From positions 63,240,001-63,304,000 of the forward strand of contig NC_042998.1 of assembly GCF_006345805.1 (NCBI RefSeq): a DNA stretch of 64,000 bases, read 5' to 3'. The notes beneath the pieces are model-generated. The model searched no databases. It worked only from the letters and a program-made list of their open reading frames with translations, and was not told where the DNA came from. This stretch comes from Octopus sinensis. Lineage: Eukaryota. Below are positions 4,575-33,855 of the stretch, one piece after another (within the stretch, counting starts at the first letter, position 1; the number at the start of each line of letters is the position of its first letter). Position numbers and translations under genes: made by a program.

Positions 4575-4632
4575 TGTGTGTGTGTGCGTGTGTGTCTGTA
4601 TGTGTGTCTGTATATATATATATATATATATA

Positions 4633-5600: not shown

Positions 5601-5765
5601 ATATTATTCAAAATATTCAACGTAAACACGAAGTTTCTACCTTTATAAACAAGGAGTTACAACATCTTTACTTGTGAGATTTTTCTACCCTGGTAACTAT
5701 TTATTTATTTTTTCCGTGTTAATTGTTAACAAGGTAAAAATACACTCATCTATATATATATATGT

Positions 5766-5944
5766 ATGACAGAGGGTGTTAGAACACCTACAATGCTAGA
5801 AATGATAGCTAAAGTGCTCTGATACTGCAGTCAAAGCACATATAATTGTATACATACATATAAAATTATGTGCACTGACTACAGTATGAGAGCACTTTAG
5901 CTCATATCTCTAGCATTGTTGGTGTTCTAGCACCCTCTGTCATA
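5766..5944. repeat. Near-perfect inverted repeat/hairpin (~80-bp arms, ~17-bp spacer), MITE- or foldback-like
   Basis: tatgacagagggtgttagaacacc...cacatataatt pairs with aattatgtgcac...ggtgttctagcaccctctgtcata. Confidence 0.85.
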
Positions 5945-7457: not shown

Positions 7458-7855
7458 TCAGGGCGGTGAGCTGGCAGAATCATTAGCACGCCGGACAAAA
7501 TACTTAGCGGTATTTCCGCCGATGTCGACTTTGCCTTTCATCCTTTCGGGGTCGATTAAATAAGTACTAGTTACGCACTGGGGTCGATATAATCGACTTA
7601 ACCTCTTTGTCTGTCCTTGTCTGTTCACTCTGTGTTTAGCCCCTTGTGGGCAGCAAAGAAAAAGAAATAGTTATTTCGCCTGCCGTTACAATCTGAATTC
7701 ATATTCCGTAGAGCTCGACTTTGCCTTTCATCCTTCCGGGGTCGACCAAATAAGTACCAGTTACGCAAGGGGAGTCGTTGTAATCGACTTAATACCTTTG
7801 TCTGTCCTTTTTTGTACCCTCTATGTTTAGCCCACTGTGGGCAATAAAGAAGTAT
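7458..7855 (+). mobile_element. SINE-B (Nin-like domain), tandem dimer with type-2 tail
   Basis: Head ggcggtgagctggcagaatcattagc, then two copies of gtcgactttgcctttcatcctt(t)cggggtcga...tagcccc..tgtgggca.aaagaa. Flanked by the 9-bp repeat atatcattg (7449-7457, 7856-7864). Confidence 0.85.
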
Positions 7856-7907
7856 ATATCATTGCTAAAACTCGCTTGAATACTATAAATTCAGTAAATG
7901 ACAATAT

Positions 7908-11949: not shown

Positions 11950-11952
<3 letters not shown>

Positions 11953-12085
11953 ATGGAATTCTTTAAATTTCTGTCTACCGATCTACTCACAAGGCTTTGG
12001 TCGGCCAGGCTATAGTAGGAGACACTTGTCCAAGGTGCCATGCAGTGGGAATGAACCCAGAGACATGTGGTTGGTAAGCAAGCTA
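11950..12085 (-). mobile_element. SINE-A, 3' portion of the copy split by ORF1-only element 1 (head at 14640-14676)
   Basis: Sequence ...catgtggttggtaagcaagcta resumes at 14640 as taagcaagctacttaccacacagccactactgcgcc. Confidence 0.9.
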
Positions 12086-12376
12086 TTTTATATCATTATA
12101 TTTGGCATAAATGCAGTACATAGAGTATAGTGGCTTTGAGGGCTGGACAAGGACATTAATGTAATGAATGATAACGAAGAAAGGATGATAAGAACGGGAG
12201 AAGACAAAAAGAACCCGTCGGCTTTTGCTTCTCTAAAACAGTGTTTTTAAAAGCAAACACAAAATGAGGTATTAAACCTCTTACAACTTTTACAATTTTT
12301 TAACTTAACTGTCCATTACAAACGACATCATAGTTCAATAATCACATATAATATCTATAAATATTATGCACAAATC

Positions 12377-13306
12377 TCAATCATCCTCCTCCCCGACCAG
12401 GCTGTACGCCTCCCTTAGGCAATGCTCCAGATCCAGGTCGGGGCCCCAGGAAGCGTATCTAAACATGTCCATCGAGAATGGGTCCATCAACCTGACCAGA
12501 GCGACATCCGATATGAATTTCGTAGTCACCTGCGAAGGCCATTTCTCGTCCTCTGTCCAGAGCATGGGTTCCCCCCTCCAGTAATCCAGCTTCTCTACAT
12601 AGCTCTATATTGCACTGAAGAAGATGATAAAATCATATCTCCTGGGAGGGGCCGCTGTTTCCTCTGTCGGTGGCACACATCCATCAACAAAGTTTCCAAG
12701 CATGCTCACAATTCACTATCAACCGCCGGCAAAATCCCGTTGTTTTTCGTTTCCCCTTTTGCTTTACGACGGGAGGGTGGAGTTCCTCCGTCTTGTCTGA
12801 AGTCCTTCCATTTCTTCCACTGCCTTAGGATCCATTGGCAGGCAACCATTGATGTCCACTTTCTTTTTCTCTCTTTTTTGAGAGGTTTGCCACCCATTCG
12901 ATTTCCCCCCTCTATTCCTCCAATGGGGGAACAGGGGGCTCGTCTTCTATTAACGCTCCAGGACATTTGCTTGGCCCCGATGGCAGCTCGTCTTCATGTG
13001 GCCTAATTGCAGGCACAGATGAGACCTGGGGAGTGTCCCTCAAGGATCACCGGGTACTTGGAACCGCCGATTACTCTTTTACTTCTTTCAGTCATTTGAT
13101 TGCGGCCATGCTGGTGCACCGCCTTTAGTCGAGAAAATCGATCCCAGGACTTATTCTTTGTAAGCCTAGTACTTATTCTATCGGTCTCCTTTGTCGAACC
13201 GCTAGGATACGGGGACGTAAGCACACCAGCATCGGTTGTCAAGCGATGTTGGGGGGACAAACACAGACGCACAAAGGCACACACATACACATACACACAC
13301 ACAACA

Positions 13307-13356
<50 letters not shown>

Positions 13357-14041
13357 CATATACAAATGTATATATATATACATATATACGACGGACGTCT
13401 TACAGTTTCCATCTAACAAATCCACTTACAAGGCTTTGGTTTGCCCGAGGCTATAGTAGAAGACACTTGCCCAAGGTGCCACGCATTGGGACTGAACTCG
13501 GAGCCATGTGGTTGGTAAGCAAGCTACATACCACACAGCAACTCCTACGCCTATATTAAAAAATCTGGCAAAACCAGGTCATCGGCTGATTGGGCCCATA
13601 GGGTCAAAATTGTTTTTGACCCCACCCTATCAGCCGCAGGAAGAATTCTGAAATTCAAGAGCCTGGCAGTACTGCCACTCAGAACCCGACGGATAGTGTC
13701 TTCTATCCATTCAAGCTATATGCCGGGTGACAGCCCATACACCCAAGCTCTTGTCAGTCTCCTCCCTTCATAAGTGGGGAGAAACAAAAATTTCTCCCCT
13801 TCTAATGGTCTGCTCGCGAAATCCTTAGCAGGGGTGTCAAAAAACACACACTTTCATGGATAAACTTAATCGTTGGCAGGTACTCCGCCAACTCTTTTTC
13901 AATGTCTGTCTGTGAGAACACAGTGATGTTGTCAAGACCCTTAGAATAGGTTCTTAACACCACCGTTCTCTCAGAAAAGTTTTGCAACCACTGTTTGGAG
14001 GCCACTATTTACCACTCCAAAACAGTATTTTTTGCTGCCAT
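12377..14041 (-). pseudogene. Disrupted ORF1 (gag-like, RRM-like region plus degenerate CCHC knuckle) of element 1
   Basis: MAAKNTVLEW*IVASKQWLQNFSERTVVLRTYS..., FLPTYEGRRLTRAWVYGLSPGI*LEWIEDTIR..., KYPVILEG..C..LGHMKTSC and EKWPSQ...LREAYSLVGEEDD*. Contains frameshifts and a SINE-A insertion. Confidence 0.8.
13071..13555 (-). mobile_element. Full-length SINE-A nested in ORF1 of element 1
   Basis: Complete head-to-tail match. Interrupts the coding remnant between LVLPDFF and GGSKYPVIL. Confidence 0.9.
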
Positions 14042-15020
14042 ATTGACGAAAAATAGATAAAATGTACAATGTTCAACACAAAAGTGCAAAAATCCAAATT
14101 AAAGTCAATAATAAAAACAAAAATAAAGATGGAAAGACCTTAGAGAGAAACAAAACGAAAGAAGACATTCAAATGGCAACACAATTCTGCTACTGAGGTA
14201 ATCCACGGTGTTCAGTCGCAGCAAAAAGTTTCGATTTTGGTTTCTCAGAATTAAGTGAGACACAAAAAAACAATAATTTTCCTGGCTGTCGTCCCGGTAC
14301 TCCTGGCCAAAATGGTAATCCACGGACACAAAACAGCTAGAAATACCAGTAAAATATAGCAGTTAAAATAACACAATTTTCAGGAGGAATACACCTCCCA
14401 AAAGGCACTTTTCACAACTAAGTGAGACTTTAAGCGCGACCACTGGCAGAAAAATGCATGGAACCCAGTGGAGACCTCTTGTTCGACGATCAAATAAATA
14501 ATACGAGCAACAGTCCTCCACTTGGTCCGGAAAACCCCCCAGATGTCTTAGTTAGTAGTCGTGCTTAATTATTTCATGACGCTGACACACACCGACATGA
14601 CTTCCGCCGCGAAAAATACGCGTCCACACTATTCAGAAATAAGCAAGCTACTTACCACACAGCCACTACTGCGCCTGCGTTAGTAACGAATTTTCTTTTT
14701 TTGACAAGACGATTGGTTTTGTGAGATGTTTGTGTTCTTGAAAACCAAGGAATCCGCAAATTAGATAAAGCGTTCGACACTTAAGAAAGTAGATTTAAAT
14801 ATATTAATTTATTTCAAACATTGCTTAGAGGCTTATAAATCTGTCTCGATCATCTGCATCTCTAACAACGTATATGCGCATATCATATAGAGACGTACAA
14901 CAAGTTTTGAAGGAATCTTCGATTATTTATACGTGTTATATCTACGTAGCTGTTTGGCTGTATACATAAATATTTGAATAATGAAATATACTATATATGG
15001 AATATATATAACAATACACG

Positions 15021-15064
<44 letters not shown>

Positions 15065-15689
15065 AATATATGTACGTACATGTGTGTATATCTATCTATC
15101 GATATATGTGTATAGGTGTATGTATATATATATATGTATATATATATATGTATATATATATGTACTTATATCCATGCATATATATACACATACACATGCA
15201 AAAGTAATAGAAACGGATGTGTTCACACCACACACACATCTATCCATTTCAATATATATGTGTGCAGGCAGAGTGATATCGACACACTTGCGTATATATA
15301 CACGTACTGTCAAAAGGGAAGTGTTGGAGGAGGAAAAGAAGGCTTTCGAGACGGAATTATAACGGACGATAAAATGAGAAATTAATGATATGCAATCTGA
15401 GCTCTACAATATGCAATTTTGAATTGAATTCGAGACGAGAATCCTACAAGAAAAATGAAGTGAATATAAGAGACAAAAACAAAACATCTTCTTTGCTAAT
15501 CTTATAACCAGAGATCACATGATTTATAGTAGAAATAATAAAGTTGTTTATATTTCTATTTATTTATATATCATTTTCGCTATATTTACATATATTCAAG
15601 TAGATATCATTCGAGTTTGTTAGAGGTAGGCGAGAATTTCTTCATATTTTAGCATTTGAAACTGGATTGTGGCGCCAGCAGAAACATGC

Positions 15690-15765
<76 letters not shown>

Positions 15766-15906
15766 GTGTGTGTGTATAGAGAGAGAGAGAGAGAGAGAAA
15801 GAAAGAGATAGACACACTCACACACACACACATACACAGACGTATATGTATATATACATATCTTTATATATTAATATATAAGTGTACGTATACATGCATA
15901 CATACA

Positions 15907-15976
<70 letters not shown>

Positions 15977-16061
15977 TACATCGTCGTCCCTAATTTCTAG
16001 CTGAATGTAAGGTATTTAAGGAGGAAATGTTCTATATGCAACACGAGTAAATATATAGTTA

Positions 16062-16275
16062 AGGTAGTGAGCTGAAGGAAACATTATCACGCCGGACGAA
16101 ATGCTTTGCGGTATTTCGTCTGTCTTTACGTTCTGAATTCAAATTCCGCTTAGATCAACTTTGCCTTTTCTTCCTTTCGGGGTCGATAAATTAAGTACCA
16201 GTTGCGTACTCGGGTCGATCTAAGTGACTGCACCACCTCCAAAATTTCGGGCCTTGTGCCTAGAGTAGAAAAGAT
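16062..16275 (+). mobile_element. SINE-B monomer, type-1 tail
   Basis: Nin-like core ttcctttcggggtcgataaattaagtacc and tail gggccttgtgcctagagtagaaaaga. Confidence 0.85.
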
Positions 16276-17304
16276 TAAACATATTTTTCCAATAGATATA
16301 TTGCATTTTATTTAGTAGCTTATACTATGTCAATCTATGGATTTCTTATACACACAAGTACACAAACACAACATATATATATATATATATACATATATAC
16401 ACACACATACACACATACACACAAGCACACACACGCACACGCACACACACACACACACATATACTTCGTTTTTGGATTTGGTTTGCAGGATCGTTTCTGT
16501 GAGTTTGAAGCATATTTTGTTGTGTTTGGTGAGAATCATTCTCTTTTAGTGCGTTTTAATTTAACACACTGGTTTTCACTCAGTTATTTCTTTTTCCTTA
16601 AATTTTCGTTGCATCTTGCAACCTTTTCAATAGTTGACTAGTCGCAGAAGGCCGCGGAATCAATCATGAAATATTTGGGGTTGTCATAATATTGTGGTTC
16701 ACATACTCATCTGAAGATAACTGTTTTTTTGTAATATTGATATAATATACCCTTTAATCAAGGAGAAAGTTCGTTTGAAAGAGCTGTAATACATTTACAT
16801 CTGTCCATTGTATTTTATTTATTTATACAAACACGCAACACAGACACACACACAAGCGCACACACATACACACACGCGCCCGCAATATATATATATATAT
16901 ATGACAAGACATAATTTTCGTTTTCCTTTATGGAAACAAAAAAGGTAGTTAGGACTGCAGAAAAGAAGTGGTCAACCGAAATTGAGACAGAGACAAAGAA
17001 ATTATTTATTAGAGAATGGACATGAAAATCGGGCCAAAGAATTTATATTACTCCAAGTTTCCATATATTTCATCAGATACAAATAATAGCATGGCCTTCA
17101 AATATAAAAGAAACACATATTAACACAGAGATAAAAAATATATATAATCATATATTAAAATACAAAATATATAGAAGGGCCTCTCAAGAAAAAGTATATA
17201 CAAATCGAGTAAAATATTTAATATATATAAAATAAACTAAAGAAAAAAAAAAAAAAAATAGATTGATAGATATATATATATACATGCATATATATATATA
17301 TATA

Positions 17305-18600
17305 TAAGGAAGAGGAAAACAAGAACAAGTCATACCATTCATAGTGACACACAACCCATGTCACCAGAATATCTTCAACATTGCCAAAGCAAACCTACCA
17401 ATCATTGCCCAAAGTAATGAATTAAAAGACATAATCACGGATCGAGCTATGGTGCTTAGTAAAAGACAGCCTAAAAACTTGAAAACATACTAACAAAGGC
17501 AAAATTTGACCTCAGCAACAAAGACCAAACATTCACGGTATCTAAATGCAATGATAGCCGATGTGGCACATGCCAATTCATACATACCGGTCAATATATA
17601 AACACAAAACCGGGAAAATATTCACAAACGCGAATATGAACTGCAAAAGCAGAAATTTAATTTACTGCATCAAATGCCCAAATTGTGAAGAAATATATGT
17701 AGGTCAGACGGGAAACGCACTATTAGAACGCTCACGTGTACACCGGCAACAGATTAGAGACCCAGAGGTCCGTCAGATACCTTTGAGTAACCACCTAGCA
17801 ACATGTGGTCGGAAAATATATATAATATTTCCATTCTACAAATTACACAGCCCAAGTGAAATCGAGAGGAAAATCAGAGAAAGAATTTTATTGATAAATT
17901 CGAACCCAAGCTAAATAAGCAATAATAATAATAATATACTTAGAGGTATTACTTCCACTGCTACGACCATGACCACTAACAACAACAACAATACTAAAGG
18001 TGATCAAGACGAAGATAGCAGGAAAATTATCTTATTTAGGGTTAAAAGTTCTATTGCCATAACCATCACCACTAGCAACAATAATTAAGGTGCTGACAAT
18101 GATGATGATGACAATTGAAATATAAAAATATAAAAATCTCTGACAAAGGATATTTACAACATTTCTAAAATAACCCAACAATTGCTGCTTCGGCCAGGGT
18201 CAAGATACAGGACTCTTGACATGTCCAACAAAGCGTGATGCCTAAACCAATCAGCTCAACCAACCAATCAGCTTAAGTAATTGAGTGATACTACACACTG
18301 ATTGGTCAGAATACAGTTTGCAAAACCTAGCACTCTGGAGCCTACCCAGCTGTATTTATAGCACAGAATCAATCATCTTGCTACAGTCAAAAATTGTGAA
18401 GCATGACTGTCAACACTACTACATGAACCCGAAGATTGCAGAATTCAATGCATGAAAGTACTAGTTCAATCAGAATGAATATTTAACATTCTACTATTTC
18501 ATTTATTTTATTCAATTAAATATATTATCTTATAATATATCATTATAAGATTGTAAATAAAACGTGAAAATCAGACAAGGTTGGAATTCTTTTTATTAAT
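17305..18600 (+). mobile_element. Penelope-like element (Neptune-type), 3' fragment
   Basis: VIPFIVTHNP..SKRQPKNLK..KCNDSRCGTC (Cys linker)..NCKSRNLIYCIKCPNCEEIYVGQTGNALLER..H (GIY-YIG). The 3' region has a hammerhead-like motif at 18424-18468. Flanked by (TA)n. Confidence 0.85.
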
Positions 18601-18653
18601 ATATTCTTCTATACACAATCACACACACCCATATATATATATTCTATATATAT

Positions 18654-18684
<31 letters not shown>

Positions 18685-19364
18685 GTATATCTATATATCA
18701 ATCTATCTTTCTCTCTCTTTATATATATAGAGAGAGAGAGGGAGAGGGGGAGACAAAGTGAGTTTTGATATGGGTTAAATCTATACGTTTATATATGCAA
18801 TGTATTTATATAAAGTATCGCTATTTGTTTGGACGTGTAATTATATTTAAATGTGATTGAAACCTGTCACACATTTATTGAAGTGTCTATCAATAAATTC
18901 TAGTATTAAATTCCTATTTATAATTGTAAAATGGTTGACGGATGCTTCGAATTTTCGTCGAAATCGCTTGCGTCAATTTCTAAAGATTTTAAATGGTTTA
19001 CATACGTTTTAGGCCGTCCAACTATTGAGACTTAGCGTTTGTAAATAGGAATCTATTAACAGAGTAATTTTCTGTTACACAAATACCCAATTTTATGGAT
19101 ATTTTAATAGGGAGAATAGACATTAATATGTCATAACAGATATCTGAAATTGGGAATGTGATTTAAAAACAGATATATTGAGGGTATCAATCGTAGAATG
19201 TCATAAAGAGATTGTAAGATTTCGGAGACAAAAAAGGGGGTAGGAAAGGAGAGAATGCGGAGGAGAAAAAGAAAAGTGAGAAGGAAAGGTAGATTGAAGA
19301 CTGGATAATTTACATCGTTGAACATTTATATGTGGTACTCTATAACATTATCTATCTATCTATC

Positions 19365-19410
<46 letters not shown>

Positions 19411-19436
19411 ATATATATATTATATATATATATATC

Positions 19437-19509
<73 letters not shown>

Positions 19510-19717
19510 CGATCTATCTATCTGTCTATCTCCTCTCTGTCTGTATGTCTTTCTGTCTGTCGTTTCTCTGTCTCTATGTCTGTCTATCTATCTATCTATC
19601 TATCTGTATGCCTATCTAGGTTGTTCTTATATTTACTCCCCTACCTACTCCAGTTCAAATCTCTACAGCACTACAGAGAATACCTGTCTGTACTCTATAT
19701 ATACATACATACATACA

Positions 19718-19761
<44 letters not shown>

Positions 19762-19771
19762 TACATATACA

Positions 19772-19820
<49 letters not shown>

Positions 19821-20585
19821 ACACACACACACACACACCACACACACACACACATATATATTGTTGAAGAGCTTTGTTCGAAACGTAAAACACACTTTCT
19901 TTCCTTCCCGGCAGCGTCTTATTAATAATTTACATGCAATACGTGTTCGCGTTGTGTCTTGTCCTTTTCCTCCGTCTTTTACTAACTATTTATATATATA
20001 GACACACACACACATATATATATATAGAGAGAGAGAGAGAAAGAAACAGAGATGTGTATATATATGTGTGTGTGTGTGTGTGCATACATACATGCACATA
20101 TTCATATATGTGAAAAAGGCGAAGGAAAATGGCGAGAGAGAGAAAGATTGGGTGTGAAAGAAATGAAGTAGAACATCTAAAGAGCCGGTAAATTATCTTT
20201 CGTCCGATGATCGTCTAATTACTGTAAACATCTATGTGTTTTTGCTGCTGATTCCACACACTTTAGAAACTTCATATCTTATCATTTCCCTTACATTAGA
20301 AATTTAGGTTATCCATAATCTGTAATAAAGTACGCGTTCCTTTTCTGAACTAATCCCTCCTCTACAACCCAGCACATGATTTGCTATGTAATCGTTCGTA
20401 TATTTACGAATTGCAGTAAAATCTATGTGGAGCACACAATGTTGTTCTCAGAGGAAATGAGATTGTATATAATGGAAAATAAGTCATGTTCATTGGCCTG
20501 AGGTTGCTGTGCTAATCGTCACCACTAATTAGTCCATTTATTTTAAAACCATTCTTCTCCTTAAACTTTGTATTTATAATCCAAT

Positions 20586-20780
20586 AGGATTGCTGAAAAG
20601 TTCCTGGCTTTGTGTAAAAGAAAATACAGGCGCATCAGTTGATTTTTCAAATTATTCCCCTCACAGATTCACACACTTATTGCCGCTGGCTTTCAGCTTT
20701 TCTAAGTCCTGTAAATGTTCGGGCTTCCAAACAGGCCTTTATGTGATACTCTTAAAGCCAGTAATTTTTCAGTACCCCAT
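20586..20780. mobile_element. Mariner-type MITE, second copy
   Basis: TIRs ttgctgaaaagttcctggcttt / aaagccagtaatttttcagtaccc. Internal sequence is similar to 8741-8946. Confidence 0.7.
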
Positions 20781-23397
20781 TGTCTGTTAGCGTGACGTAT
20801 GTGTTTGGCACAGAAGGTAGAATGTGTTGGAGGACTGATTCAACCTATAAATTCAATGGCTGTTTGCCACGAATCATATCACTTTCTCTTTCTATCGGTA
20901 ATTACTGAAATGCTAACGTGGATATGGTTGTTGTTATTATTCTTGTGGTTTCGGCTGTTTTGTTTGTTATTTATCACAAGGATAAATAATTTGAAGTGAA
21001 ACTACGATAAAAATTATTCGCCGTTTCATCACCCACGTGTTTGCAAATTTATTTTATCTAAATGTGGATAATCCTCTATGAATTTAATTTGATGAGATTT
21101 GAAGCTGTTATTTTATGAAGAACTTTGGCAGTGATTCCTTGCGTGTCGACTTCTCGTGTAGAATTCTGCAGAACCCCATTGTAGACAAACGCAAACATAT
21201 GCATCAGTTCCTGCTACTTGTCAAGTCACAACTTGCATTGTTCGTTCTAGTCAAGATGTCAAAAAAGTCTAGTTAACAAACTCGTGTATAGTGTAGGGTT
21301 TCTCCAAGAAACACCGTGCTTTCTCTCAGAACAGCAGCGTATAATCTCTCAAAGTGTAGACAACGGTGAACAACGTTGGTCAGATTCTGTCTACGTATCC
21401 GCGTTTCAGACATTGAAATAGCGTGAATTTAATAAAAATGCAATTATAGCAGAATGTCGATAATGGCCATATATAAAACTATTTTGAATAAATACTTGAT
21501 TATTGCTCGATGCAAATCAGTATCGCAACATGTGAAAAGTAGAGTAATTAAATAAAAAATAGAAAAAAGAACATAGGAAGACAAATACAGAGAAATCACT
21601 CAGTAAAATTGCTTCCTTACAAAATTTAACGAACTTTGCTTCACCATTATGCAGTAATTTGAATGAATTATCATGTTTTAGTGACAGTTCTTGCGTGTAT
21701 GTGCGATTGGGGATAAAATCAAGCTGAAAAAATGTCTTCAGTATTGATTAATAAAAAAAATAATAGAAGCCAAGTCAATATATTTTCAAGTAATATTCGG
21801 ATTACAAAATATCATTCAGAAAGTGAACGTCTCTGCGTTTCATTGAAATAAAACCAAATTTTCAGTAAAAATAACAGGAGCATTAACAATTTCAACACCT
21901 AGGTCTCCAAATAATATATTATTCAATTCTAAATAATCTAGTTACAAGAGACATCAAAACTCCCATTCAAACTTTTTAATTTATTTACTGGACATGACGC
22001 GACTGAGAGTCAGTGCAAACTTATTTTACGTCGATAAATAGGTCTGCTCGATATAACTAAAATTTTGCGGGACCGCGGCGGACGATTCGGCGAAGTGTTC
22101 AGTGATGGAAATAAGAAACGGAAAGCGTTAGGTATAACGAGAGTGCTGGAAGGACATGCTGGCTGTAGAGTGAGTAAACTACTACAACATCGGATTTGAG
22201 GTTGTTAAAATATACGAAGATAAGATATGAAGAAGAAATAACTATTCAGTAAATTAGTGGTAGAAATGAGTTGGCAATTAAGCCGTTTTTAACCAACCGA
22301 AGCATATTTCTTTGAAAGCACGCTAATTGTTGCATTCAGCAGCGCAATTTTGTGTACAGTGCTTACACACGTGAATGAAGAGTGTAAAGCTTAGCTGTTT
22401 TCTTTTTGAATTATGGAAATAATACTCTTATCCACACAGCTAATGAAGGATCGTCTATGTTTTCACTCGGAAAGCTAGAATGTGCAGTCAAGCATTTCAG
22501 CATCAACAACATTGTGTCTTAGAAAATAAATGTTGGTAAATGTGCCTCTAAGTTCCACAGAAATAGTATAAGACAAGATAGTCACGGCTGGAAGGTTTTA
22601 TATAAGCTTCTTCTATGGGGATCGATCAGGGTGGAACAACAGAAACAACAGCACAACAATAACAAATTCAGCTTGAAGAGTTTGTGATCTCTGAGAAACG
22701 CTGAGGAGGTATTTAGGAATATTATTCTTCAAAAACCCACTGCAATGAGGCTTCATAGAAAAGAAAACACGTAAAACCCATGTAATATACATATAAAACG
22801 CAAACATATTCTTATTAAATAAATTGATGCAGAAGATTAAGAATTATTATTGGTGCCATGTTTGAAAATAAGCAAATTCAATAGGCAGAATCGGGGGAGA
22901 AATCAGACTGTTCTGATTAACAAATATATTGGTAATAGCGAAGAATCATAAAATCATGGTTGGTAGTAAGTTTAAAAGGTGCGACAATTTAATTACTTTT
23001 TGGAGTGTCTATATTCCTTGTAAATTCTTTGAATATAGTGGTACATTTCCCTACTTACATCTTGCAAATTTACACGCACGCGCGCATGCACATATTAATA
23101 TTTGTTTTTATGTTCAGTTATAATAACAATTTCACATAAATATGATGGGTTACTCTGTAATTTATTATTCATATACATGAATGTTGACAGTGACTTCGAA
23201 GTTTTGGCCGGCTAAGCCATCGTCGGACTGCGAGGGTCTTAGAGTTAGTCTTATCCTCGTATAGTCTCCGTTGACTTAAGAACATCTTTGGGTTTGTGGA
23301 CCTGAGTGGTGTGGTAATTAAGTTTTTACAGTTGGTTGTAACGTAGAAGTGTTTTGGAAAGAGTTAATTGATTAAACATAATATGAAAAATCTGATA

Positions 23398-24082
23398 TCT
23401 GATATTGTTTATGTTTAAATAGAATTCACGTCCTCGATCGTTTATAAGTATGCTGACCACCAGCTGAAACTGATACTGTTTAATAGTATTATTTAATAAT
23501 ATTAATGTCTACCCTTATTATTTAATTTTATTATTTATTATTTAATAGCATTATTTAATAATATCAATTTCTACCCTTCTTATTTAATTTTATTATTTAT
23601 TATTTAATTTTATTATTTAATGGCATTATATAATAATATCAATTTCTACCCTTATTATTTAATTCTATCAATTATGTTTTAATTTTATCATTTATTATTT
23701 AATTTTATTAATTTTTATTTAATTTTATTATTTAATAGTATTATTTAATACACAGCCTCTCCTGCGCCTATATTGAATTTTGCCTGTCCAATTATTGAAT
23801 TGTTCCTGTTGAAACCTTAAGGTATGGAATTAAGTACTATGTTTATTTCTTTTCATTTGTCTAGCTCGTAAACATCTAGCGTCTTGTTAAGTTGGGAACA
23901 CAGATTTAGTGGCAAGAGGGTTTCATGTCTATTTGTAGCATCCATAGAGTGATCTCTCATATTGTTTATGTTTATACAGAATTCACGGTCCTCAGACGTT
24001 TTTAAGTATACTGGCCACTAGTCGAAATTGATATTATTCAATATTATTTAATAATATTAATTTCTACTCTTATTATTTAATT
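23398..24082. repeat. ~125-bp direct repeat (23400-23527, 23958-24082) with an AT-rich minisatellite (ttattatttaat-like, 23480-23750); possibly PLE-derived
   Basis: atattgtttatgttt...agaattcacg.tcctc...cgttt.taagtat.ctg.ccac.ag..gaaa.tgata.t occurs twice. Confidence 0.65.
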
Positions 24083-24391
24083 AATTAAATTGTTGTTAAT
24101 GTTATTGTTTAGAATTTATTTATGCATGTAGAACTTTGTAAACAAGTCTGTAGGAAGTTCTCCTTATTTAGCTAGGCACAAAGTGTGACAGTATTTTTGT
24201 TGGTTTTGCTATTATTGGATTTAATCATTTAGCTTTGACAGTATAAAGGTCAAAATTACAAAGTCCAGTATTTAAGCCTTTAGTCATTCGCTGTCAGCAT
24301 TCTTACATGAAAGTATGTAGGTAGGGTGTGGGTAAGTTTAGAGTGGTTCTTCTTGCTGATATTTAGTGTATTTCCTATTTTCATTTTATAC

Positions 24392-24567
24392 GAGTGGTTG
24401 TGTGGTAAGCAGCTTATTTACCAACCTCATGGTTTCGGGTTCATTCCCCCTGCGTGGCACCTTGCGAAAGTGCCTTCCATTATAGCCTCGGGCAAACCAA
24501 AACCTTGTGAGTGGATTTGGTAGACCGTAACTGAAAGAGGCCTGTCGCACACACACATATATATATA

Positions 24568-24620
<53 letters not shown>

Positions 24621-24823
24621 GCTTTTGTTTGTTCCGCAACATCACTTGAAAACCGATGGTGGTATGTTTACATCCCCGTAACTTAGCGATTCGGCAGAAA
24701 CAGACCGATAGAATAAGTACTAGGCTCACAAAGAATAAGTCCAGGGGTCGATTTGCTCAACTAAAGGTGGTGCTCCAGCATGGCCGCAGGCAAACGACTG
24801 AAACAAGTAAAAGAGTAAAATAG

Positions 24824-24825
<2 letters not shown>
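24392..24825 (+). mobile_element. SINE-A, near full length
   Basis: Head, CORE-like motif, (TG)n middle and tail ggtgctccagcatggccgcagg...gaaacaagtaaaagag. Confidence 0.9.
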
Positions 24826-24855
<30 letters not shown>

Positions 24856-24858
<3 letters not shown>

Positions 24859-25835
24859 CATGACAGAAGTAAATAGACACATTTATACTCATTAAAATTA
24901 ATTTACATTTGAAATTACAGATTCCTAGACAACTGTTTCATACTCTGGAATGAAAGCACAAACTCCTGAAATTCAATAGTCTATTGAACAACCCAAACAT
25001 ACAGTTCACAATGGAGTACAACGAAAAGGAGCTGCCATTCTTGGATATATTAAATTTTAAAAAGCCTAAAAAATGGAAACGGACGTATTTTACAAAGTCA
25101 CAGACGCCAAACAATATCCACTGTTTAATTCATGCCGACCAAGGTACACCAAACAACCATCCCCTTCAACCTTGCAAGACGGATATGCAAAATAGTGTCA
25201 GAAAAATACCAGAGGCTTTCGACTGCAAGATCTCAAAATCACCCTAATTGACAGACACTATCTAGTTCAACTCATAGAGGATGGAATCAGACGTCCAACG
25301 CAAATCGACATAGGGACTTAAAGAAAGTTCAACACAACAATACACCTTCCTCAAAAATACTGCCGTCCATATCCACATACAACCCCAGAAACAAAGAAGC
25401 CTTCACCATCATCACCTAAAATTTACCAATGCTACATAAGGACCCCAAATTAAAGGACATTTTACACACACATAGGATCATTACAAGCCACAAACAACCG
25501 AAATCACTAAAAAGATCCTCACCATGGCAAAATTATTTATTAAATGACAGACGCAAAACTAAAAAAAAATGTGGTCGACCAAATTGCGCAAAATACCCAA
25601 ACCTTCTAGTGGGGTCAGAATTCCTTTTATAAGAGGGACAAAAATTCAAAATTTCATCTAATTTTATTTGTGATTCAGAAAACCTGATTTATGTTATAAG
25701 ATGCTCGGGCTGCCACCAAAACTATACAGGGTCCACAGGATACACTCTGCACCGTCAGCAGAATCCTGTTGTACATAGCAGAAAAGATCAATACATTGAC
25801 TCACAAAGTGCACATTGCGAGTCCGTGGGAAATAA
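24856..25835 (+). mobile_element. Penelope-like element fragment (RT C-terminal half to GIY-YIG), frameshifted
   Basis: YRFLDNCFILW (RT motif C), NIQFTMEYNEKELPFLDIL, TDVFYKVTD, IPFNLARRIC, KQPKSLKR, KCGRPNC and NFICDSENLIYVIRCSGC. Related to 17305-17920. Confidence 0.85.
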
Positions 25836-25843
25836 TACATACA

Positions 25844-25877
<34 letters not shown>

Positions 25878-25980
25878 CATACTAGTACCTCGGTTTTCGA
25901 ACAACTCTGACCACGAGTAAATCGTGCTTTATATATATACATATACCTGCCTTATATTTATATGTACATTCGCTAGCAAA

Positions 25981-26390
25981 TGGCTGGCAGAATCATTAGC
26001 ACGCTGGGCGAAATGCGTGGCCGTATTTCGTCTGCCGTTACCTTCTGAGTTCAAATTCCGTCGAGGTCGACTTTGCCTTTTACCCTTTCGGGGTCGATAA
26101 ATTAAGTACTAGTTACACACTGGGGTCGATGTAATCAACTTAATCCGTTTGTCTGCCCTTGTTTGCCTTCTCTCACTTTAGCCCCTTGTGGGAAGTAAAG
26201 AAATAAGTATTTCGTCTGCCGCTACGTTCTGAGTTCAAATTCCGCCGATGTCGACTTTGGCTTTCATCCTTTCGGGGGTCGATAAATAAGTACCAGTTAC
26301 GAACTGGGGTCGATATAATCGACTTGATCCGTTTGTCTGTCCTTGATTGTCCCCTCTGTGTTTAGCCCCTTGTGGGTAGTAAAGAAATAG
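25981..26390 (+). mobile_element. SINE-B tandem dimer, type-2 tails
   Basis: Two ~183-bp units with junction gtaaagaaataagtatttcgtctgccg. Flanked by acattcgctagc / acaatcgctagc. Confidence 0.85.
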
Positions 26391-26394
26391 ATAT

Positions 26395-26643
26395 ACACAA
26401 TCGCTAGCTTTCTTACAAAGCGGTCTAATGCTCTCAGCTTAGACTTTTTGGGGGGCAACCAGATCGAACCATCTCAAGTGTAACTGCCCGAAATGGCCGT
26501 GACTTCTGGAACTTTACTGATGAACGAAAGCCAAGAATGACCTGTGTTTCTTTTGCCTGTCCTTCTAATTGTTATTTCTCTTATCCACCTTTGTATCGTC
26601 TATCTGTCCACACGTTTTAATGCCTTCTATTGCATTTTACTCC

Positions 26644-26650
<7 letters not shown>
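26395..26650 (+). repeat. Short interspersed repeat related to 57690-57915
   Basis: Shared tctaatgctc..agcttag..ttt..gggg...gatcg..c.atctcaag...gccga.at.gc...ctga.ga...gaatgacc.gt. Confidence 0.6.
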
Positions 26651-26725
<75 letters not shown>

Positions 26726-27714
26726 TACAAAGAAAATTTGCCACAAGACTTTTCAAATATACCAAGAGTATATTGCGAAATAATGTGGCTTGCAATAGAA
26801 AATGGACCGTTATTTATGTAGAGCCTGACTGCATACATGGTGGGCGATAGTTTAACAACAAAATATAATTAACAACAAAAAATTCAATATAGTAGCAGAA
26901 AGAGAAAAAGAATAATAATCATAAAAAATACATTGATTATTTCAATATATGAAGTTTAAAAAAATCGTAACATATTTTTTTAAGGCTGAGCAGATATAGA
27001 ACTACGTACAGAAAGTCACAGTTTCCGATTTTACCTTGATTTCTGTATAATTTTTTGTTTTCTATGTAACTTTTTCCTGTAATATAGCGGTTCTTGCAGT
27101 CATTTTACATGTTTTTTATAAATGAAATAAAATTTCAAAAGCGTTTTGGAATCAATATTGTTTTTACTAAAGCCTTCCGCTTTCAATTATTTCTTTTATT
27201 CTCTTCATTTTTTTCTCTGTGGCCTTTCAGTATTGCAGGGTGATTTGGTGCTGTGAATGACGCTACAGTCCTGCAGATAATACAATGAAATTGCATAGTA
27301 GTTTTAAATATGTTATTCATGTTATTTGTTTATGCACAAACACTTTTTTTGTACACTGCTATTCCAAAAAGTGTGGGTTTTCGCACAAAATTTTCTATCG
27401 TGGTTCAAATCCTGAATATCTGCTCACGTTTGGTTTGAAAAAATCGGAAGCGTGAGACCCAGCGATACGTATGTTGTACTTTCAGCTTTTGTTACTCTAT
27501 TTCCATATTGAATGGTATATATTTCGCCCTATTGTTTCACTCACTTCGTTTCTCAGTATACATATGTTTTTATATATATGTATGTACATATGTATACATG
27601 AATGCATATATGTAGGCGTGGATGCATGTCTGTCTGTCTGTTTGTGTGTGTGTCTGTATGCATATATATTAAAATATGCAGATCTGTCTCTCCCCTCTCT
27701 TCCTAGCTAGCTAA

Positions 27715-27760
<46 letters not shown>

Positions 27761-28476
27761 TTATTTATTTATTTATTTATCTATCTATTTATCTATCTAT
27801 CTATCCCTCTCTCTTTCTCTATCTATGCATTATATAAATATTATGTACGGTTTTTATAAAATTATATAATTCTTCTGCAAGATTAGAATTGCATAATTTG
27901 GTCTGTATGTGACGGAATCGATCTATATACATGTTATGTATTATATAAATATATTTTTCCTACTTATATCCATTTACGACATTTTTAAGCTTCAGCATAC
28001 CCCAACGCCTGTCATATATTACAAAAATACTGATGCTAATTCTGAAATTCAGGAGATTTTGTCTGGATTTGAAGTTTAGATATATTCTGAATTACATTAG
28101 TAATTTTAGATCGCATGTCTTCAATATAACGTGTTTCAGCTGAATAAACCGTAGGTTTTGATGCTCCCATAATAATAGTTCAATTTACAATAATTTACAT
28201 TTTAATCAATAAATAATTATACAAAATGTTTGAATTTATGACAATATAATTGATGCATCATGCTACTAAATGATCTTTCGACGATTAACTCTTAACTCTA
28301 TCATTTATAGAGTTTTAAATTGAATATTGCATAACGACCGTGAAATAAGGTTTAAGAAATGTTTTTAAACTCTCTCTCTCTCTCTATCTCACTCTCTCTC
28401 TCTCTCACACACACACATACACACACACTCATGTGTTTATAACTAAATTAGTTATATATATATGTATAATACATAA

Positions 28477-28516
28477 GGCGCAGGAGTGGCTGTGTGGTAA
28501 GTAGCTTGCTTACCAA
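28477..28516 (+). mobile_element. SINE-A head, split by ORF1-only element 2 (resumes ~30781-30810, degraded)
   Basis: ggcgcaggagtggctgtgtggtaagtagcttgcttaccaa; resumes as aagtagcttgctcatcaatcatatagt. Confidence 0.85.
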
Positions 28517-30780
28517 GTAGCCTGCATACTTCCCATGAGTATTTGTTATCAGAGTGCGCATGTGTCAGTGTGTTGTGCACTGAAGAAGTTAGCCAGCAGC
28601 ATTTAGCCTGCCAAAAGAGGCTACTGCAAGGTAAGACTTTTCTCTTGGACCCGGTGAGAGTCGTTGTCTGTGCTTTTATGTTTTACAAGCAAGAAATCCT
28701 CACTGGATTCGGCATGTTGGTCTACTTACGGTTCAGCAACATGGTCCATAGTAAACGAAAATTTTTTCACATTGTGAGAAGTACATGGTGGGCGTACCTT
28801 TAACCAAAATTTGTTCACTTTTTAACAGTGTATGTTTTTACAACAACAACATTTACCATTATTGAAAAACTCTATTTCAAGTGTTCACATGAAGTGAACA
28901 TTTTTTCTCATTGTGAGAAATATAGTTTGGCAACATTTAGTGTCTATTTTAGTTTGGTGACAAATAGTTTGTATTTTACAACTACGTTGGAAAGCTGTAT
29001 TCATGTGGAGCAGTTCAGGTTCTAATTGGAGTACCATAAGGGCTTGGAGTACCTGAATGCCCAGAAGATTTTTTTGCTGTGTTTTTTGAGCTATTGTTTT
29101 CTTCTTCTATTGTAATTTTTTTATTGAAGTGTTTGCTTTTTCTTCTTCCTTTTTGATTTCTTTGAACTATTGTTTGGGACTTTTTATTTTTTAATTTCAA
29201 ACATGGCAAAGAAATACGGATAACATTGTAGAGTGGGAGATTGTTCCACCTAAGGAGTACCTCAGACAGCAAGAGGAGAGGACGGTGGTGTTGAGAATGT
29301 ATTCGAATGTTCTCAACACCATTGCCGTCTTCGCAAAGCAGATGATTGAGCAGGGGTTGGCAGAGCATCTGCTAACCATTAATTATATCTCTAGGGGAAT
29401 CAAACATGCAACGGTGTCGTTGCTCTTTGACACCCCAGGCGAGGCTCGCAATTTTGCGAGCCAGCCGTTGAGAGTAAAGAGATTTTGTTTCTTCCCACTT
29501 ATTGTGGGACAAAATTGACGAGGGCGTGGGTCTGTGGTTTGCCACCCGAAATTGAACCCCAGTGGATAGAGGATACTATCCGTTGGGGTCTGGGTGGCAG
29601 CGGAACCAGGCTCCTCAATGTGAAAATTATTCCTGTGGCTGATTGGGTTGGGTCAAAAGCTGTTTTGACCATGTGGACCCAATCAGCCATGAATCTGGTT
29701 ATGCCAGATCTTTTCAAAATGCCCGGGTGCAGGTACCCGGTGATTCTTAAGGGTCGCCTCCACTCCAAGTGTTATCGGTGCCTAGACCCTGGCCATATAA
29801 TGAATAACTGTCCTCGGAAGCAAGACCGTGTCCTAGAGCAGTCAGTTGAGACTTCTGTAAAAAAGGGAACGAAGGCGTCTGAGGAGACGGAGGATTCCTG
29901 AGGGAAGAGCCGCAAGAGGAAGAAGGTTAGCAACAATGGTTGCTCACCGAAGGATGAGGGAGGGGAGGTGAATCTCCCGGTCATAGAGGAGACGCACCCT
30001 CCCTCAGTTGAGAGGAAAAAAGAGGAAAAGGTGGAGAAATGGGAAATTGCCGGCATTCTGTGACACAGCACCGGAATGTCCCGGAGCCTTGCCGGTAGGG
30101 TCTGTGCCATCAGCAGGGGAATAGACACCGTTGGGGCAAACTGTGCCCCCAACGGTAAAATTGACTACCTCGAACCCGGAGGAAGAGGAACTATTGGTCT
30201 TCTTCTACAAAGGCGGAGACGTAGAAGATGTGGTTGAAAGGCACCATACGTGAGTACCTTTAGCCTTCAAACAGTATCCCGAATGGCCTCCGCAGATAGC
30301 CGTGGAGATCATAACAGTGTTTGTGGGGTGTAGGCTGCGGGACCTCAATGAGGAATATCACTTGTGGACGTGCGACTCTGGCTCGGATTCCGCATTGGTC
30401 TTGAATGAGGCGTGGGGAAAGGTGGAGTATACGGGCACAAGCGATGACGGGGAGGAATAATGACAAGAGGTTGAAAAGCCTGTGTTACAATGTTTAATGC
30501 TTATTGCATGTTATTATGTTTAAGAGGCTTAACGCCCCAATTCTTAAATGGACTATTAGTCCAAAAATTTGTACAACTGAAGTAAGAGGTTCATAACCAC
30601 ATTTTGTCTTTTTCTGTAGAAAAAAAGAAGAGAATAATGTTTTAGAGAAGCTGAAAATGGGCGGGCATGTTTTTGTCTTCTGCCATTAATATCATCCTTA
30701 TCATTATTAAATTCATCAATGTCTTTGTCCAGCCTGCAAGCTACTCTGCATCATGCCTTTATGTCAATTTTTTAAAAATA
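28517..30780 (+). mobile_element. ORF1-only non-LTR retroelement, copy 2 (L1/Tx1-like), inserted in the SINE-A head with a ~16-18-bp TSD
   Basis: TSD aagtagcttgcttaccaa (28499-28516) / aagtagcttgctcatcaa (30781-30798). ~690-nt leader, one ORF, ~320-nt trailer similar to copy 1. Confidence 0.85.
29203..30460 (+). pseudogene. Frameshifted ORF1 (RRM-like region plus CCHC zinc knuckle) of element 2
   Basis: EWEIVPPKEYLRQQEERTVVLRMYS..., RAWVCGLPPEIEPQWIEDTIR, YPVILKGRLHSKCYRCLDPGHIMNNCP (CX2CX4HX4C) and PEWPPQ...LNEAWGK..DDGEE*. Confidence 0.85.
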
Positions 30781-30891
30781 AAGTAGCTTGCTCATCAATC
30801 ATATAGTCACGGTTTCTTTTATCTCTTTCAGATTAAAGAACATTTTTTTGCTAATAAATATATTTTCAACAACAATATAAAACAAAGAAAG

Positions 30892-31325
30892 GAGGCGAGC
30901 TGGCAGAAACGTTAGCACGCCGGGCGAAATGCTTAGCGGTATGTCGTCTGCCGCTACGTTCTGAGTTCAAATTCCACCGAGGTCAACTTTGCATTTTATA
31001 CTTTCGGGGTCGACTAAATAAGTATCAGTTGCGCACTGGCGTCCATATAATCGACTTAATCCGTTTGTCTGTCCTTGTTTATCTCCACTGTGTAGCCCCT
31101 TGTGGGTAGTGAAGAAATAGGCAACGTTAGCACGCCGGACGTAATGCATAGTGCTATTTCATCTGTCTTTATTGTTCTGAGTTCAAATTCTGCCGAGGTC
31201 GACTTTGCCTTTCATCCTTTCCGGGTCGATAAATTTAGCACCATCTGCGTACTGGGGTTGATCTAATCGACTGGCCCCTCTCTCCCCGCAAATTTCGAGC
31301 CTTGTGCCTAGAGCAGAAAAGAACA
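30892..31325 (+). mobile_element. SINE-B composite: type-2 unit followed by type-1 unit
   Basis: Junction gaagaaataggcaacgttagcacgccgg at ~31111-31138. Confidence 0.85.
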
Positions 31326-32320
31326 AAAAACAAAGACTGGTTGTCGAAGCAGAATGTATATATGTATGTATATATGTATCATTCTCTATCTATCTATCTA
31401 TCTGTCTCTCTGTCTGTCTATCTATCTATATGTCTCTCTGTCTAATTTTTGTAGCTAGGTTGGTATTGAAGCCAAAGAACTTACAAGGGCAAACTGAGAG
31501 TACAAGCTGCAAGTACAAGTATATTTTGTTCCATGGACAGATGAAAATCCTTGAAAAGAACAGCTATGCCAGTCGTTAGAATATAATGCAGTTGTGACTG
31601 AAAGGGACTTAAAGTCTTTAGAAGCATTGAAAGTATGGCCCTACAAACATGCATTGCTAACGAGGCTCGTGTGTCTGTTGATTATGTTTAAGATAAAATT
31701 TGGAAGGAGTGGAGAGGGAAAAACACCTATCTCCGCAGGTAGTTAAGTTTTCTGCCAAGTTTCACTTCAGTAGGACTGTACGAAACGCAGGAACATCAAC
31801 TTTTCTTATACGACTTAGAACAATTCAAAAGCACATAATGCATAGTTGACATGATGTACAGGGTCGCTCATGTCGACCGTGTCAGACAGGCAGACCTGAA
31901 TACAAGATGCAATTTGGCAGCCAATACCATAGTCGAACAGGCTAAGTTGTAAATTTACGCGAACAGGGTTGAAGATCTGTGTAGCGGCAATCAAGATCTG
32001 TGTAGCGGCAACTACCACAGGAAACTTGATTAAAATGTGACCTGTCCAAAAAGAATATATATTTTTAACTGCAATTTAGAACAAAGAAACCTTTGCAATC
32101 TTCGTAGTGTTGTGAATGATAATGACATTCCTAGCGATAACAATCCTGCACAGATGAATCATGAGAGTCGAAGGTCGATGTATACAGTTTTGGAAGGAGA
32201 GGCACTGTGGAACACATCTCTTCATGTCGTAAAAGATGACTTAACTCAAGTGAGATAAAGATGGTGCTATGCCAAGATGCTCACAGTTCTTGCTCATCGA
32301 CTAGGATAACAAAAATAAAA

Positions 32321-32526
32321 CAGTTCTATATATAAGAGATGGGGAATTATGTACCTTATTTACATTATTTACATTTGATGGATATGTGTCCTCCTCTTCT
32401 TTGTTGTTAACACAACGTTTCAGCTGATATACTCTCCAGCCTTCATCAGGTGTCTTGGGGAATTTCGAACGTGCGTTCTCATTCCTAAGGTATTTTTCGA
32501 TGTTATCATCATTATCATCATCATCG

Positions 32527-32561
<35 letters not shown>

Positions 32562-32642
32562 ATTATTATTATTAGTGTTCAGGTCACTGCCTGGAATCGA
32601 ACTGTGAATCTCGGGGTTAGTAGCCCGCGTTCTTAACCATTA
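32321..32642 (-). mobile_element. tRNA-headed short element with trinucleotide middle and hammerhead-like tail (copy 1)
   Basis: Minus strand reads tggttaagaacgcgggctactaacccc..gttcgattcc, then (AAT/AAC/GAT)n, then gacacctgatgaaggctg..cagctgaaacgttgtgtt. Confidence 0.8.
32409..32454 (-). ncRNA. Type I minimal hammerhead-ribozyme-like motif
   Basis: GACAC-CUGAUGA-A-GGCUG(loop)CAGCU-GAAA-CGUU-GUGUU: stem I, intact core, stem II and palindromic AACGUU in place of stem III. Confidence 0.6.
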
Positions 32643-33063
32643 TCAGCAGGGTAAAACCATATTAGCATCAAATTTTGTGGTGAAAGGAGAAAGCTGTTGA
32701 TTGTAGCAAATGAATACACAATTTACTACGTAAGACCCAATCTTGCGATATAGAAGTAGGTCCTGGACAAGATTGCAACTCTTCCCAGTCATCGAAGCAA
32801 CCCTGAGGTCGGATTTCGTTTTAAATTCTGAAAAGGGAAAAACAAAATTCAGGTTGATCTTGCAGTAACCTGTGTAAGAAGATATGATGGAATCTTTGAA
32901 TGGAAGTGCGTTAAGTAGTAGAACGCTTCACCGAATTGGAAGACTAAATGGTGACAAGTATAGATTTTACCTGTAGAAGATGGCTGTAGAGAATTTCCGG
33001 GCAAGTCAGTATGGAAAAATACTTCGACCCATAAGAATAAGAAGTGGAAAGAGAAAAGTGTAT

Positions 33064-33435
33064 CTACATTATTTACATTTGACGGATATTTGTCCTCATC
33101 TTGTTTGTTGTTAACACAACGTTTCGGTTGATATACCTTCCAGACTTTATCTGGTGTCTTGGAGAAATTTCGAACCGGAGTTCTCATTCCTAAGGTATTT
33201 TTGATCTTCTTCTTCTTCTTCTTCTTCTTCTTCTTCTTCTTCTCTTCTTCTCTTCTTCTTCTTCTTCTTTCTTCTTCTTCTTCTTCTCTTCTTCTTCTTC
33301 TTCTCTTCTTCTTCTTCTTCTTCTTCTTCTTTCTTCTTCTTCTCTTCTTCTTCTTCTCTTCTTCTCTTCTCTTCTTCTTCTTCTTCTTCTTCTTCTCTCT
33401 TCTTCTTCTTCTTCTTCTTCTCTTCTTCTTCTTCT

Positions 33436-33466
<31 letters not shown>

Positions 33467-33631
33467 TTATTATTATTATTATATTATTATTATTATTATT
33501 ACCATTATCATTATTATTATTATTGTTATAGCGAAATCAAAGAGAGGTTATCTCCACCACGGGCATATGGCGTAGTGGTTAAGAGCGCGGGTTACTAACC
33601 CCAAGATTCCGAGTTCGATTCCAGCCAGTCA

Positions 33632-33682
<51 letters not shown>

Positions 33683-33855
33683 TAATAATATAGAAAATAC
33701 TTAGGAATGAGAACCCAGGTTCGAAATTCCCCGAAGACACCTGATGAAGCATGGAGGGTGTGTCAGCCGTAACGTGTTAAGAACAAACAAGATGAGGACA
33801 AATATCCGTCAAATGTACATAATGTACATAATTCCTTATCTCTTAAATATAAAAC
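33064..33855 (+). mobile_element. Same tRNA-hammerhead element (33561-33855) preceded by an inverted tail copy (33064-33205) and (CTT)n(TAT)n; 12-bp TSD
   Basis: TSD agaaaagtgtat at 33052-33063 and 33856-33867. A box tggcgtagtgg, B box gagttcgattcc, ctgatga at 33741. Confidence 0.85.

Follow-up and report, generated by a model that had tools for sequence, protein, structure and literature searches.

In a window of 64,000 nucleotides of the Octopus sinensis genome (NC_042998.1, positions 63,240,001 to 63,304,000; the whole stretch analysed here), two retroelements each split a copy of one short interspersed element (SINE) family, SINE-A, and both end at the same base of its head. We consider it very probable, from their sequences and those of their relatives, that these elements are passengers encoding only a first open reading frame (ORF1), copied to the SINE site by the endonuclease and reverse transcriptase (RT) of a complete helper long interspersed element (LINE) via target-primed reverse transcription. 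The exact 17-nt junction of element and SINE occurs 1,535 times in the genome and its reversed control once; there are thus at least 1,535 junctions of an element end to SINE-A, which is beyond chance. Equally young lineages, moreover, discriminate one base of the SINE target. A sequence-only reading of the window had proposed that a site-specific endonuclease uses the SINE as its landing site, an interpretation that our results support with amendments: the window elements are without enzymes, the endonuclease would act in trans from a full LINE elsewhere, and the sequence aimed at is one that the SINE mostly supplies.

Element ends at one base of SINE-A

Each window element sits between a SINE-A head, ending GTGGTAA, and the remainder of the same SINE-A copy. 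Alignment with relatives gives both elements the identical 3'-terminal base, at AA^G(T/A)AGCTTGC in the SINE-A head, where an AATAAA-like tail without poly(A) is followed by G(T/A)AGCTTGC. The parts are arranged as follows.

14652..14676, minus strand: 5' piece, from the head, of the SINE-A copy that element 1 interrupts (A-box-like motif; last bases AA, then the insertion base)
14640..14651, minus strand: target duplication of element 1 (12 bp), 5' copy
12087..14639, minus strand: element 1, ORF1-only non-autonomous retroelement, family 1 relative, with an AATAAA-like tail without poly(A)
12377..14041, minus strand: decayed ORF1 of element 1 (stops, frameshifts, SINE interruption; relatives have an intact ORF1)
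13071..13556, minus strand: second, unsplit SINE-A copy, a later insertion in ORF1 of element 1 (ends approximate)
12075..12086, minus strand: target duplication of element 1, 3' copy (G>A at its first base)
11950..12074, minus strand: rest of the split SINE-A copy beyond element 1 (with B-box-like motif and body; distal limit approximate)
28476..28500, plus strand: 5' piece, from the head, of the SINE-A copy that element 2 interrupts
28501..28514, plus strand: 5' target copy ahead of element 2 (duplication, partly likely element-borne)
28515..30782, plus strand: element 2, ORF1-only non-autonomous retroelement, family 2
28515-28529, plus strand: second, degenerate target-like block at the start of element 2, common to other copies (L082, L099)
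29203..30460, plus strand: element 2 ORF1, decayed, bearing a CCHC knuckle (knuckle scored in relatives)
30783..30817, plus strand: 3' target copy (30783-30798) and short surviving SINE-A remnant of element 2

As the sequence-only reading had described, the two elements are co-oriented with their split SINE-A copies, have unrelated outer flanks, and are homologous yet diverged (similarity ~70% across 442 nt of ORF1 and 67% across 269 nt of the 3' untranslated region, UTR). Their 3' junctions, placed 1-3 nt apart in that reading, fall instead at the same base, element 1 ending at 12087 and element 2 at 30782. The duplication lengths given there (11 versus ~16-18 bp) also have to be revised: that of element 1 is 12 bp (14651-14640 and 12086-12075) and starts with a G>A change at 12086, while that of element 2, which has only ~35 nt of SINE left on its 3' side, is not cleanly measurable because the element bears target-like sequence at its own 5' end. 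A single decayed ORF1 is present in each element and no apurinic endonuclease (APE) or RT frame in either, both being ORF1-only and non-autonomous.

When downstream flanks were tabulated across the genome, SINE was found at one base after copies detected by queries or patterns drawn from the element alone. The 3' UTR queries gave 1,269 first-look candidates for family 1 and 868 for family 2, of which 40 were scored and 30 fetched for each, the window's own copy counted among the 30. SINE follows the element directly in 27 of the 30 family 1 loci (one more has a SINE head with a rearranged 3' side, and two lie outside) and in 26 of the 30 family 2 loci (one stacked, three outside). A passenger tail pattern with open flank had 330 matches, and by hand count the first 100 comprise 93 in SINE, one stacked and six outside. 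Among helpers, 79 of 84 exact 3' ends of a young family abut SINE, three are stacked within SINE (L318-L320) and two lie outside, while 30 loci of an older lineage divide into 28 SINE, one stacked and one without a junction. Many subfamilies of 1.5-2.6 kb have this junction in common, and no look-alike stretches were found in the other genomes compared. Helpers and passengers were also seen stacked head to tail at the regenerated site (L073, L088, L094, L099, L100, L183, L186, L194, L195, L290, L318-L320, L325).

Could all of this derive from one ancestral SINE-element chimera per family, amplified as a unit by hitchhiking or duplication, with no targeting at all? The identical 5' junction sequences among full-length copies of a family would speak for such an origin. 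However, the insertions are independent, as had been supposed from the two window elements, because element ends are almost invariant, SINE flanks are not, and the duplications copy private mutations: across 27 of the 30 young helper loci, similarity is 99.8% in the terminal 100 nt of the element and 89.3% in the first 100 nt of SINE flank, and private variants are present on both sides of the insertion in L003, L013, L184, L423 and L431. Near-identical elements in SINE copies differing by ~11% are not what a single amplified chimera would leave, and this alternative, which the sequence-only reading had set against its own, fails. Copies truncated at their 5' end, from 24 nt to 1.6 kb, lie between SINE head and body; of 20 long loci, 17 have the SINE head directly 5', with differing outer flanks, and three have another element's end there; the 5' sequence in common extends no further than the insertion base, beyond which heads vary and, in stacked copies, are missing; and even the off-SINE sites have a core motif in common. 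We therefore regard the chimera as extremely improbable, and the hallmarks of target-primed reverse transcription are all observed: a fixed 3' junction, variable 5' truncation and a target duplication of up to ~16 bp.

The 5' ends of full-length copies carry target-like sequence of their own, which makes duplication lengths, that of element 2 included, unreliable. GTAGCTTTGCTAACC stands directly 5' of eight of 20 young helpers and GTAGCTTGTCTAACC of three, neither ever on the 3' side, and family 1a copies start GAAGCTTGCTTCC even where their 3' side differs; this target-like tag does not extend into the SINE head. We infer that transcription starts just inside the upstream duplication, and transcripts beginning there would leave such a tag on full-length copies.

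A probable helper LINE and ORF1-only passengers

A complete helper LINE of 5.46 kb occupies the same SINE-A site (junction L113/L131) and has an ORF1 with CCHC motif and an ORF2 with APE, RT and zinc-binding regions. In the L131 copy, which has one frameshift in each ORF, PF03372, PF00078 and PF13966 match in ORF2, and PF00098 scores above cut-off in ORF1. The family is young: its best 40 3' ends are 99-100% alike, similarity within it is 99.5%, and intact endonuclease frames exist among its members. The older lineage, found at the GAAG version of the site, is 87% alike within. Four sequencing runs have contigs that cover the helper, and contigs of two studies that differ in organism label span the SINE head and the helper 5' end, which bears on presence only; no RNA run was listed among those containing it. 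The nearest solved structures to its ORF2 and endonuclease are L1 ORF2 and its endonuclease, whilst the best-scoring named relative of its RT is an Argonauta hians protein (60%); in the tree, proteins of Argonauta and Acanthosepion join the RT in a clade supported at 100/100, itself part of a larger group whose branching is unresolved. The helper appears to be of L1/Tx1 type, a label that comes from its architecture and not from named Tx1 references in the tree. Insertion at a specific sequence of a multicopy target, common though not universal in the Tx1 clade, is seen here, with 82 of 84 young ends in SINE-A.

Full-length passengers measure 1.5-2.6 kb between SINE head and body; they have ORF1, and no endonuclease or RT match was found inside them. 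Their ORF1 shares 31% identity over 106 aa with that of the helper (E 3e-15), and over the terminal 35 nt passengers and helpers are 76-90% alike. With dN/dS of 0.09-0.24 in six subfamily pairs and 0.37 in one close pair, passenger ORF1 is under purifying selection. By its features it strongly resembles ZCCHC3-like two-domain CCHC proteins, although the fold model is unreliable (predicted local distance difference test 39.6), and no match to a Pfam RNA-binding domain was found in it; an ORF1 of this kind is one that we take to be linked to Tx1. Shorter ORF1-only elements (1.5-2.5 kb) at L137, L206, L214 and L215 have an ORF1 seemingly nearer to the helper's than to those of families 1 and 2, and ORF1-only passengers may accordingly have had more than one origin.

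How, then, would a passenger reach its site? The nick made by the helper endonuclease would fall in the bottom strand, either at AA^G or two nucleotides leftward, in which case the primer TT would pair to the last AA of the RNA, and the enzyme would read more than 9 bp with some tolerance. The ~35-nt 3' tail shared by the two kinds of element could recruit helper ORF2 to passenger RNA. As insertion parts the A box of the SINE from its B box, the invaded copy is likely silenced.

Several observations weigh against this account. No duplication was found by script at six off-SINE ends (L311-L315, L321), and some SINE-flanked copies have no traceable 5' junction. The young-helper and passenger tail patterns omit sites with G at +21, a slight bias toward SINE flanks. 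The RT tree, of 36 rows with 33 chosen from 240 homologues, has no named Tx1 or L1 reference among them, and dS is close to saturation in three of the pairs used for dN/dS.

Site recognition and a one-base choice

The 9-mer AAGTAGCTT occurs at 168,613 genomic sites; an exact SINE context surrounds at least 123,179 (73%), and in a sample from the start of contig C1, 23 of 30 such sites are SINE. Specificity is therefore for a sequence mostly supplied by SINE, and the SINE itself might be incidental: the enzyme could read a short motif (AA^GTAGCTT) of which SINE-A is just the main supplier, with no adaptation to the SINE. That the upstream head or downstream body may be absent from stacked copies, and that the insertion at L165 lies in an unrelated tandem repeat bearing the same 9-mer, fit this possibility as well as the site counts do. 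Nonetheless, we find it rather doubtful. The 82 of 84 young helper ends in SINE exceed 23 of 30, and mismatches in the 9-mer are tolerated at many used sites, which points to recognition wider than 9 bp. Helper lineages exist, too, for both SINE versions. The six off-SINE sites with a recognisable duplication are all AA^GWA (L062, L078, L086, L098, L165, L316).

SINE-A offers at least three versions of the site among the first 100 matches, GTAG-TAAC, GTAG-TTAC and GAAG-TTCC, and the lineages treat them differently. Intact heads number 21,917 with GAAG against 123,179 with GTAG, so that GAAG makes up 15% of what is available, yet only one of 84 young helper insertions is in GAAG (binomial P ~2e-5). 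This sole case is a 24-nt insertion of uncertain family, and one further near-family GAAG copy (L346) came from a separate search. The older helper lineage, conversely, has GTAG at none of 30 loci. Among the first 100 matches to the passenger tail pattern, passengers sorted by tail tag have GAAG shares of 21/22, 0/37, 0/17, 1/11 and 2/5 (hand count; binomial P 0.002 for 0/37), the 7-nt tag not being monophyletic, as TGTAATG spans two lineages, both GAAG. Clade-level counts, which take in 48 of 59 loci and leave out short truncated and stray copies, sharpen the contrast: family 1a, 96.0% alike within, uses GAAG at seven of eight loci, and its sister, 94% from 1a and 96.4% alike within, at none of eight, while the older family 2 (88.6% within) uses GTAG at seven of eight. 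Off-SINE sites retain the second base of their lineage. We conclude that equally young lineages discriminate one base of the SINE target. Two simpler schemes were set aside: family 1 as a whole is not GAAG-specific, since close relatives including element 1 use GTAG, and pairing passengers with helpers by tail identity gave no T/A pattern.

Three explanations can be offered for the choice between T and A. It could be purely temporal, GAAG SINEs having been available early and GTAG SINEs later; the GAAG helper family is indeed older than the GTAG one (87% versus 99.5% within), and the TAAC version is used by the youngest families only. But GAAG still makes up 15% of intact sites and received one of 84 young helper and none of 37 young passenger insertions, and an older family used T where a younger one used A. 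Given sisters of equal age and an older family on T, time alone does not explain the pattern, and, unless old GAAG SINEs are physically out of reach, we judge a purely temporal cause very unlikely. Favoured as the likely account are coexisting helper lineages with different endonucleases, ahead of a choice carried by the RNA. The helper lineages themselves split by T/A and differ at three of the six residues aligned to the L1 hairpin loop (SGDGRF versus NG-D/N-R/G-KL); in L1, grafting of this loop altered specificity, although point mutants left nicking patterns unchanged (PMC1950540). This evidence has its weaknesses. The loop difference is slight support, as the lineages differ elsewhere too (~70-79% identity) and three to four decayed GAAG copies cover the loop; a GAAG helper as young as family 1a was not found among 19 matches to a narrow pattern, the tightest group being 91-93% alike; and the GAAG passenger tail is as near to the young GTAG helper (0.90) as to a GAAG helper (0.88).

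Alternatively, the same machinery could serve all lineages, with the T/A choice set in cis by donor-flank bases (GUAG or GAAG) in the RNA that pair with the nicked target. In R1- and R2-type elements, read-through RNA pairs with the target. Such a memory, through which a lineage re-selects the SINE version that it occupies, would replace only the last step of the mechanism proposed above, and we hold it possible though less probable than different endonucleases. It would suit the sister passengers of the same age that use different versions, seven of eight A against none of eight, at a time when both versions were available, the older family 2 being already on T sites; the coeval GAAG helper that the narrow pattern did not find; the target-like 5' sequence of full-length copies (GTAGCTTTGCTAACC, for instance); tails that do not sort by T/A; and the second base retained off SINE. 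On the other hand, 3' junctions contain no copied donor flank, duplications off SINE begin at the target's G, the outer target bases (+11) of the young helper follow availability (15 TAAC and 11 TTAC of 28), and helper lineages, too, are split by T/A with different loops. Coexisting helper lineages with different endonucleases thus remain our likelier account of the choice. More speculatively still, and doubtful in our view, a guild of LINEs might track the evolution of the SINE site by RNA memory, one mis-landing retargeting a lineage by one base with the enzyme unchanged. If true, RNA memory would constitute heritable, RNA-programmed target choice in an APE-type retrotransposon.

The SINE-A head had been described as tRNA-derived. 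Such a derivation finds weak support here: the head aligns collinearly with tRNA-Lys and tRNA-Ala genes of the assembly (no significance computed), but an Rfam search of it returned no tRNA match at E<=10. For octopus, PMC4758252 cites three SINEs of tRNA origin. Genuine tRNA genes, which the sequence-only reading had suggested checking, do not appear to be used: none of the 27 different tRNA sequences compared (Lys, Ala, Thr, Arg, Cys and Phe only) has AAGWAG at the matching position, and no element ends run into GWAGCTCAG (reversed control 7). ARAGORN detected no tRNA genes in the window. Within these six isotypes, tRNA genes are not supported as a target. The tRNA-Phe genes on unplaced contigs (L253-L259) start with target-like AAGTAGCT, a motif near the tRNA-Phe 5' end.

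A second SINE family, SINE-B, has a tail like the helper 3' end (eight window matches) and forms nested dimers and trimers; one of its clusters begins ~100 nt beyond element 2.

Window 30889-31326, 7463-7862, 25983-26394, 38209-38640 and 42209-42922: SINE-B

At L348 (G000:C18, ~47.29 Mb), a whole SINE-B copy lies at a SINE-A GAAG site with a 16-bp duplication, which makes SINE-B a third user of the site. Elsewhere in the window are long imperfect palindromes at 4628-5604 (~980 nt) and 5765-5944 (~180 nt), possibly foldback or miniature inverted-repeat transposable element (MITE)-like, and an inverted repeat of ~320 nt at 32323-33855 with an internal partial copy at 33061-33241.

Known systems and implications

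That Tx1-type LINEs target other transposons is already known, as are ORF1-only derivatives; what is new here is the one-base discrimination by lineages. In crocodilians, Tx1-Mar LINEs and SINEU-3 target two unrelated regions of a DNA transposon, Mariner-N4 (Kojima 2015, PMC4494074). As in the octopus, these are APE LINEs favouring a site in another abundant transposon, with non-autonomous passengers at the same site, tandem insertions, independence argued via 5'-truncated copies, and families that prefer different sites (PMC4494074). The octopus target, however, is one base in a SINE head, with a one-base difference in the site separating the lineages, and whilst SINEU-3 are snRNA-headed SINEs (PMC4494074), the main octopus passengers encode ORF1. 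Tx1L of Xenopus inserts in Tx1D, Keno in U2, and Kibi and Koshi in microsatellites; these too are sequence-specific APE LINEs in multicopy DNA, their specificity ascribed mainly to the endonuclease, but no SINE is among the targets named in the passages of that source drawn on here (PMC4494074). A list of LINE targets does include tRNA genes and transposons in general (PMC4640811).

ORF1-only non-autonomous LINEs include HAL1 (half-L1), HeT-A and Ag-Sponge, from the L1, Jockey and CR1 clades, which like the octopus passengers have a 5' UTR, ORF1 and 3' tail without ORF2 and need an autonomous partner; none named in the relevant passages comes from Tx1-type LINEs or is aimed at a SINE (PMC5753468, PMC5786205). 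A further difference is that octopus passenger ORF1 is merely ~30% identical to helper ORF1. HAL1 proper, which is mammalian and L1-derived, can be set aside, as the helper RT groups with cephalopod proteins; the passengers are HAL1-like in mode only. SART1 and TRAS1 are likewise APE LINEs, reading 10-12 bp around the nick, and their ORF proteins mobilise RNA bearing the 3' UTR in trans, but they are R1-type, with poly(A) tails and telomeric targets (PMC7265360). As for cephalopods, a repeat paper on O. vulgaris lists 13 recently active L1-Tx1 families, and the word 'target' occurs 0 times in its main text (PMC13282606). Our literature search retrieved no LINE aimed at a SINE head and no cephalopod report of this system, which Repbase, Dfam or paper supplements may hold.

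What might such a system mean for its host and its hosts' repeats? With ~1% of intact-pattern sites occupied (1,535 versus 145,096), SINE abundance is unlikely to be governed by it. The system places the promoter region of a SINE among the targets of sequence-specific LINEs, and a single site is used by a three-tier guild of helper LINE, ORF1-only passengers and a second SINE with the same tail. As the TAAC version is used by the youngest families only, nested insertions could date SINE-A subfamilies. The helper family, young, 99-100% alike at its 3' end and with intact endonuclease frames, is assayable, and lineages equally old but one base apart in target choice provide a natural experiment on the shares of endonuclease and RNA in the targeting of APE LINEs.

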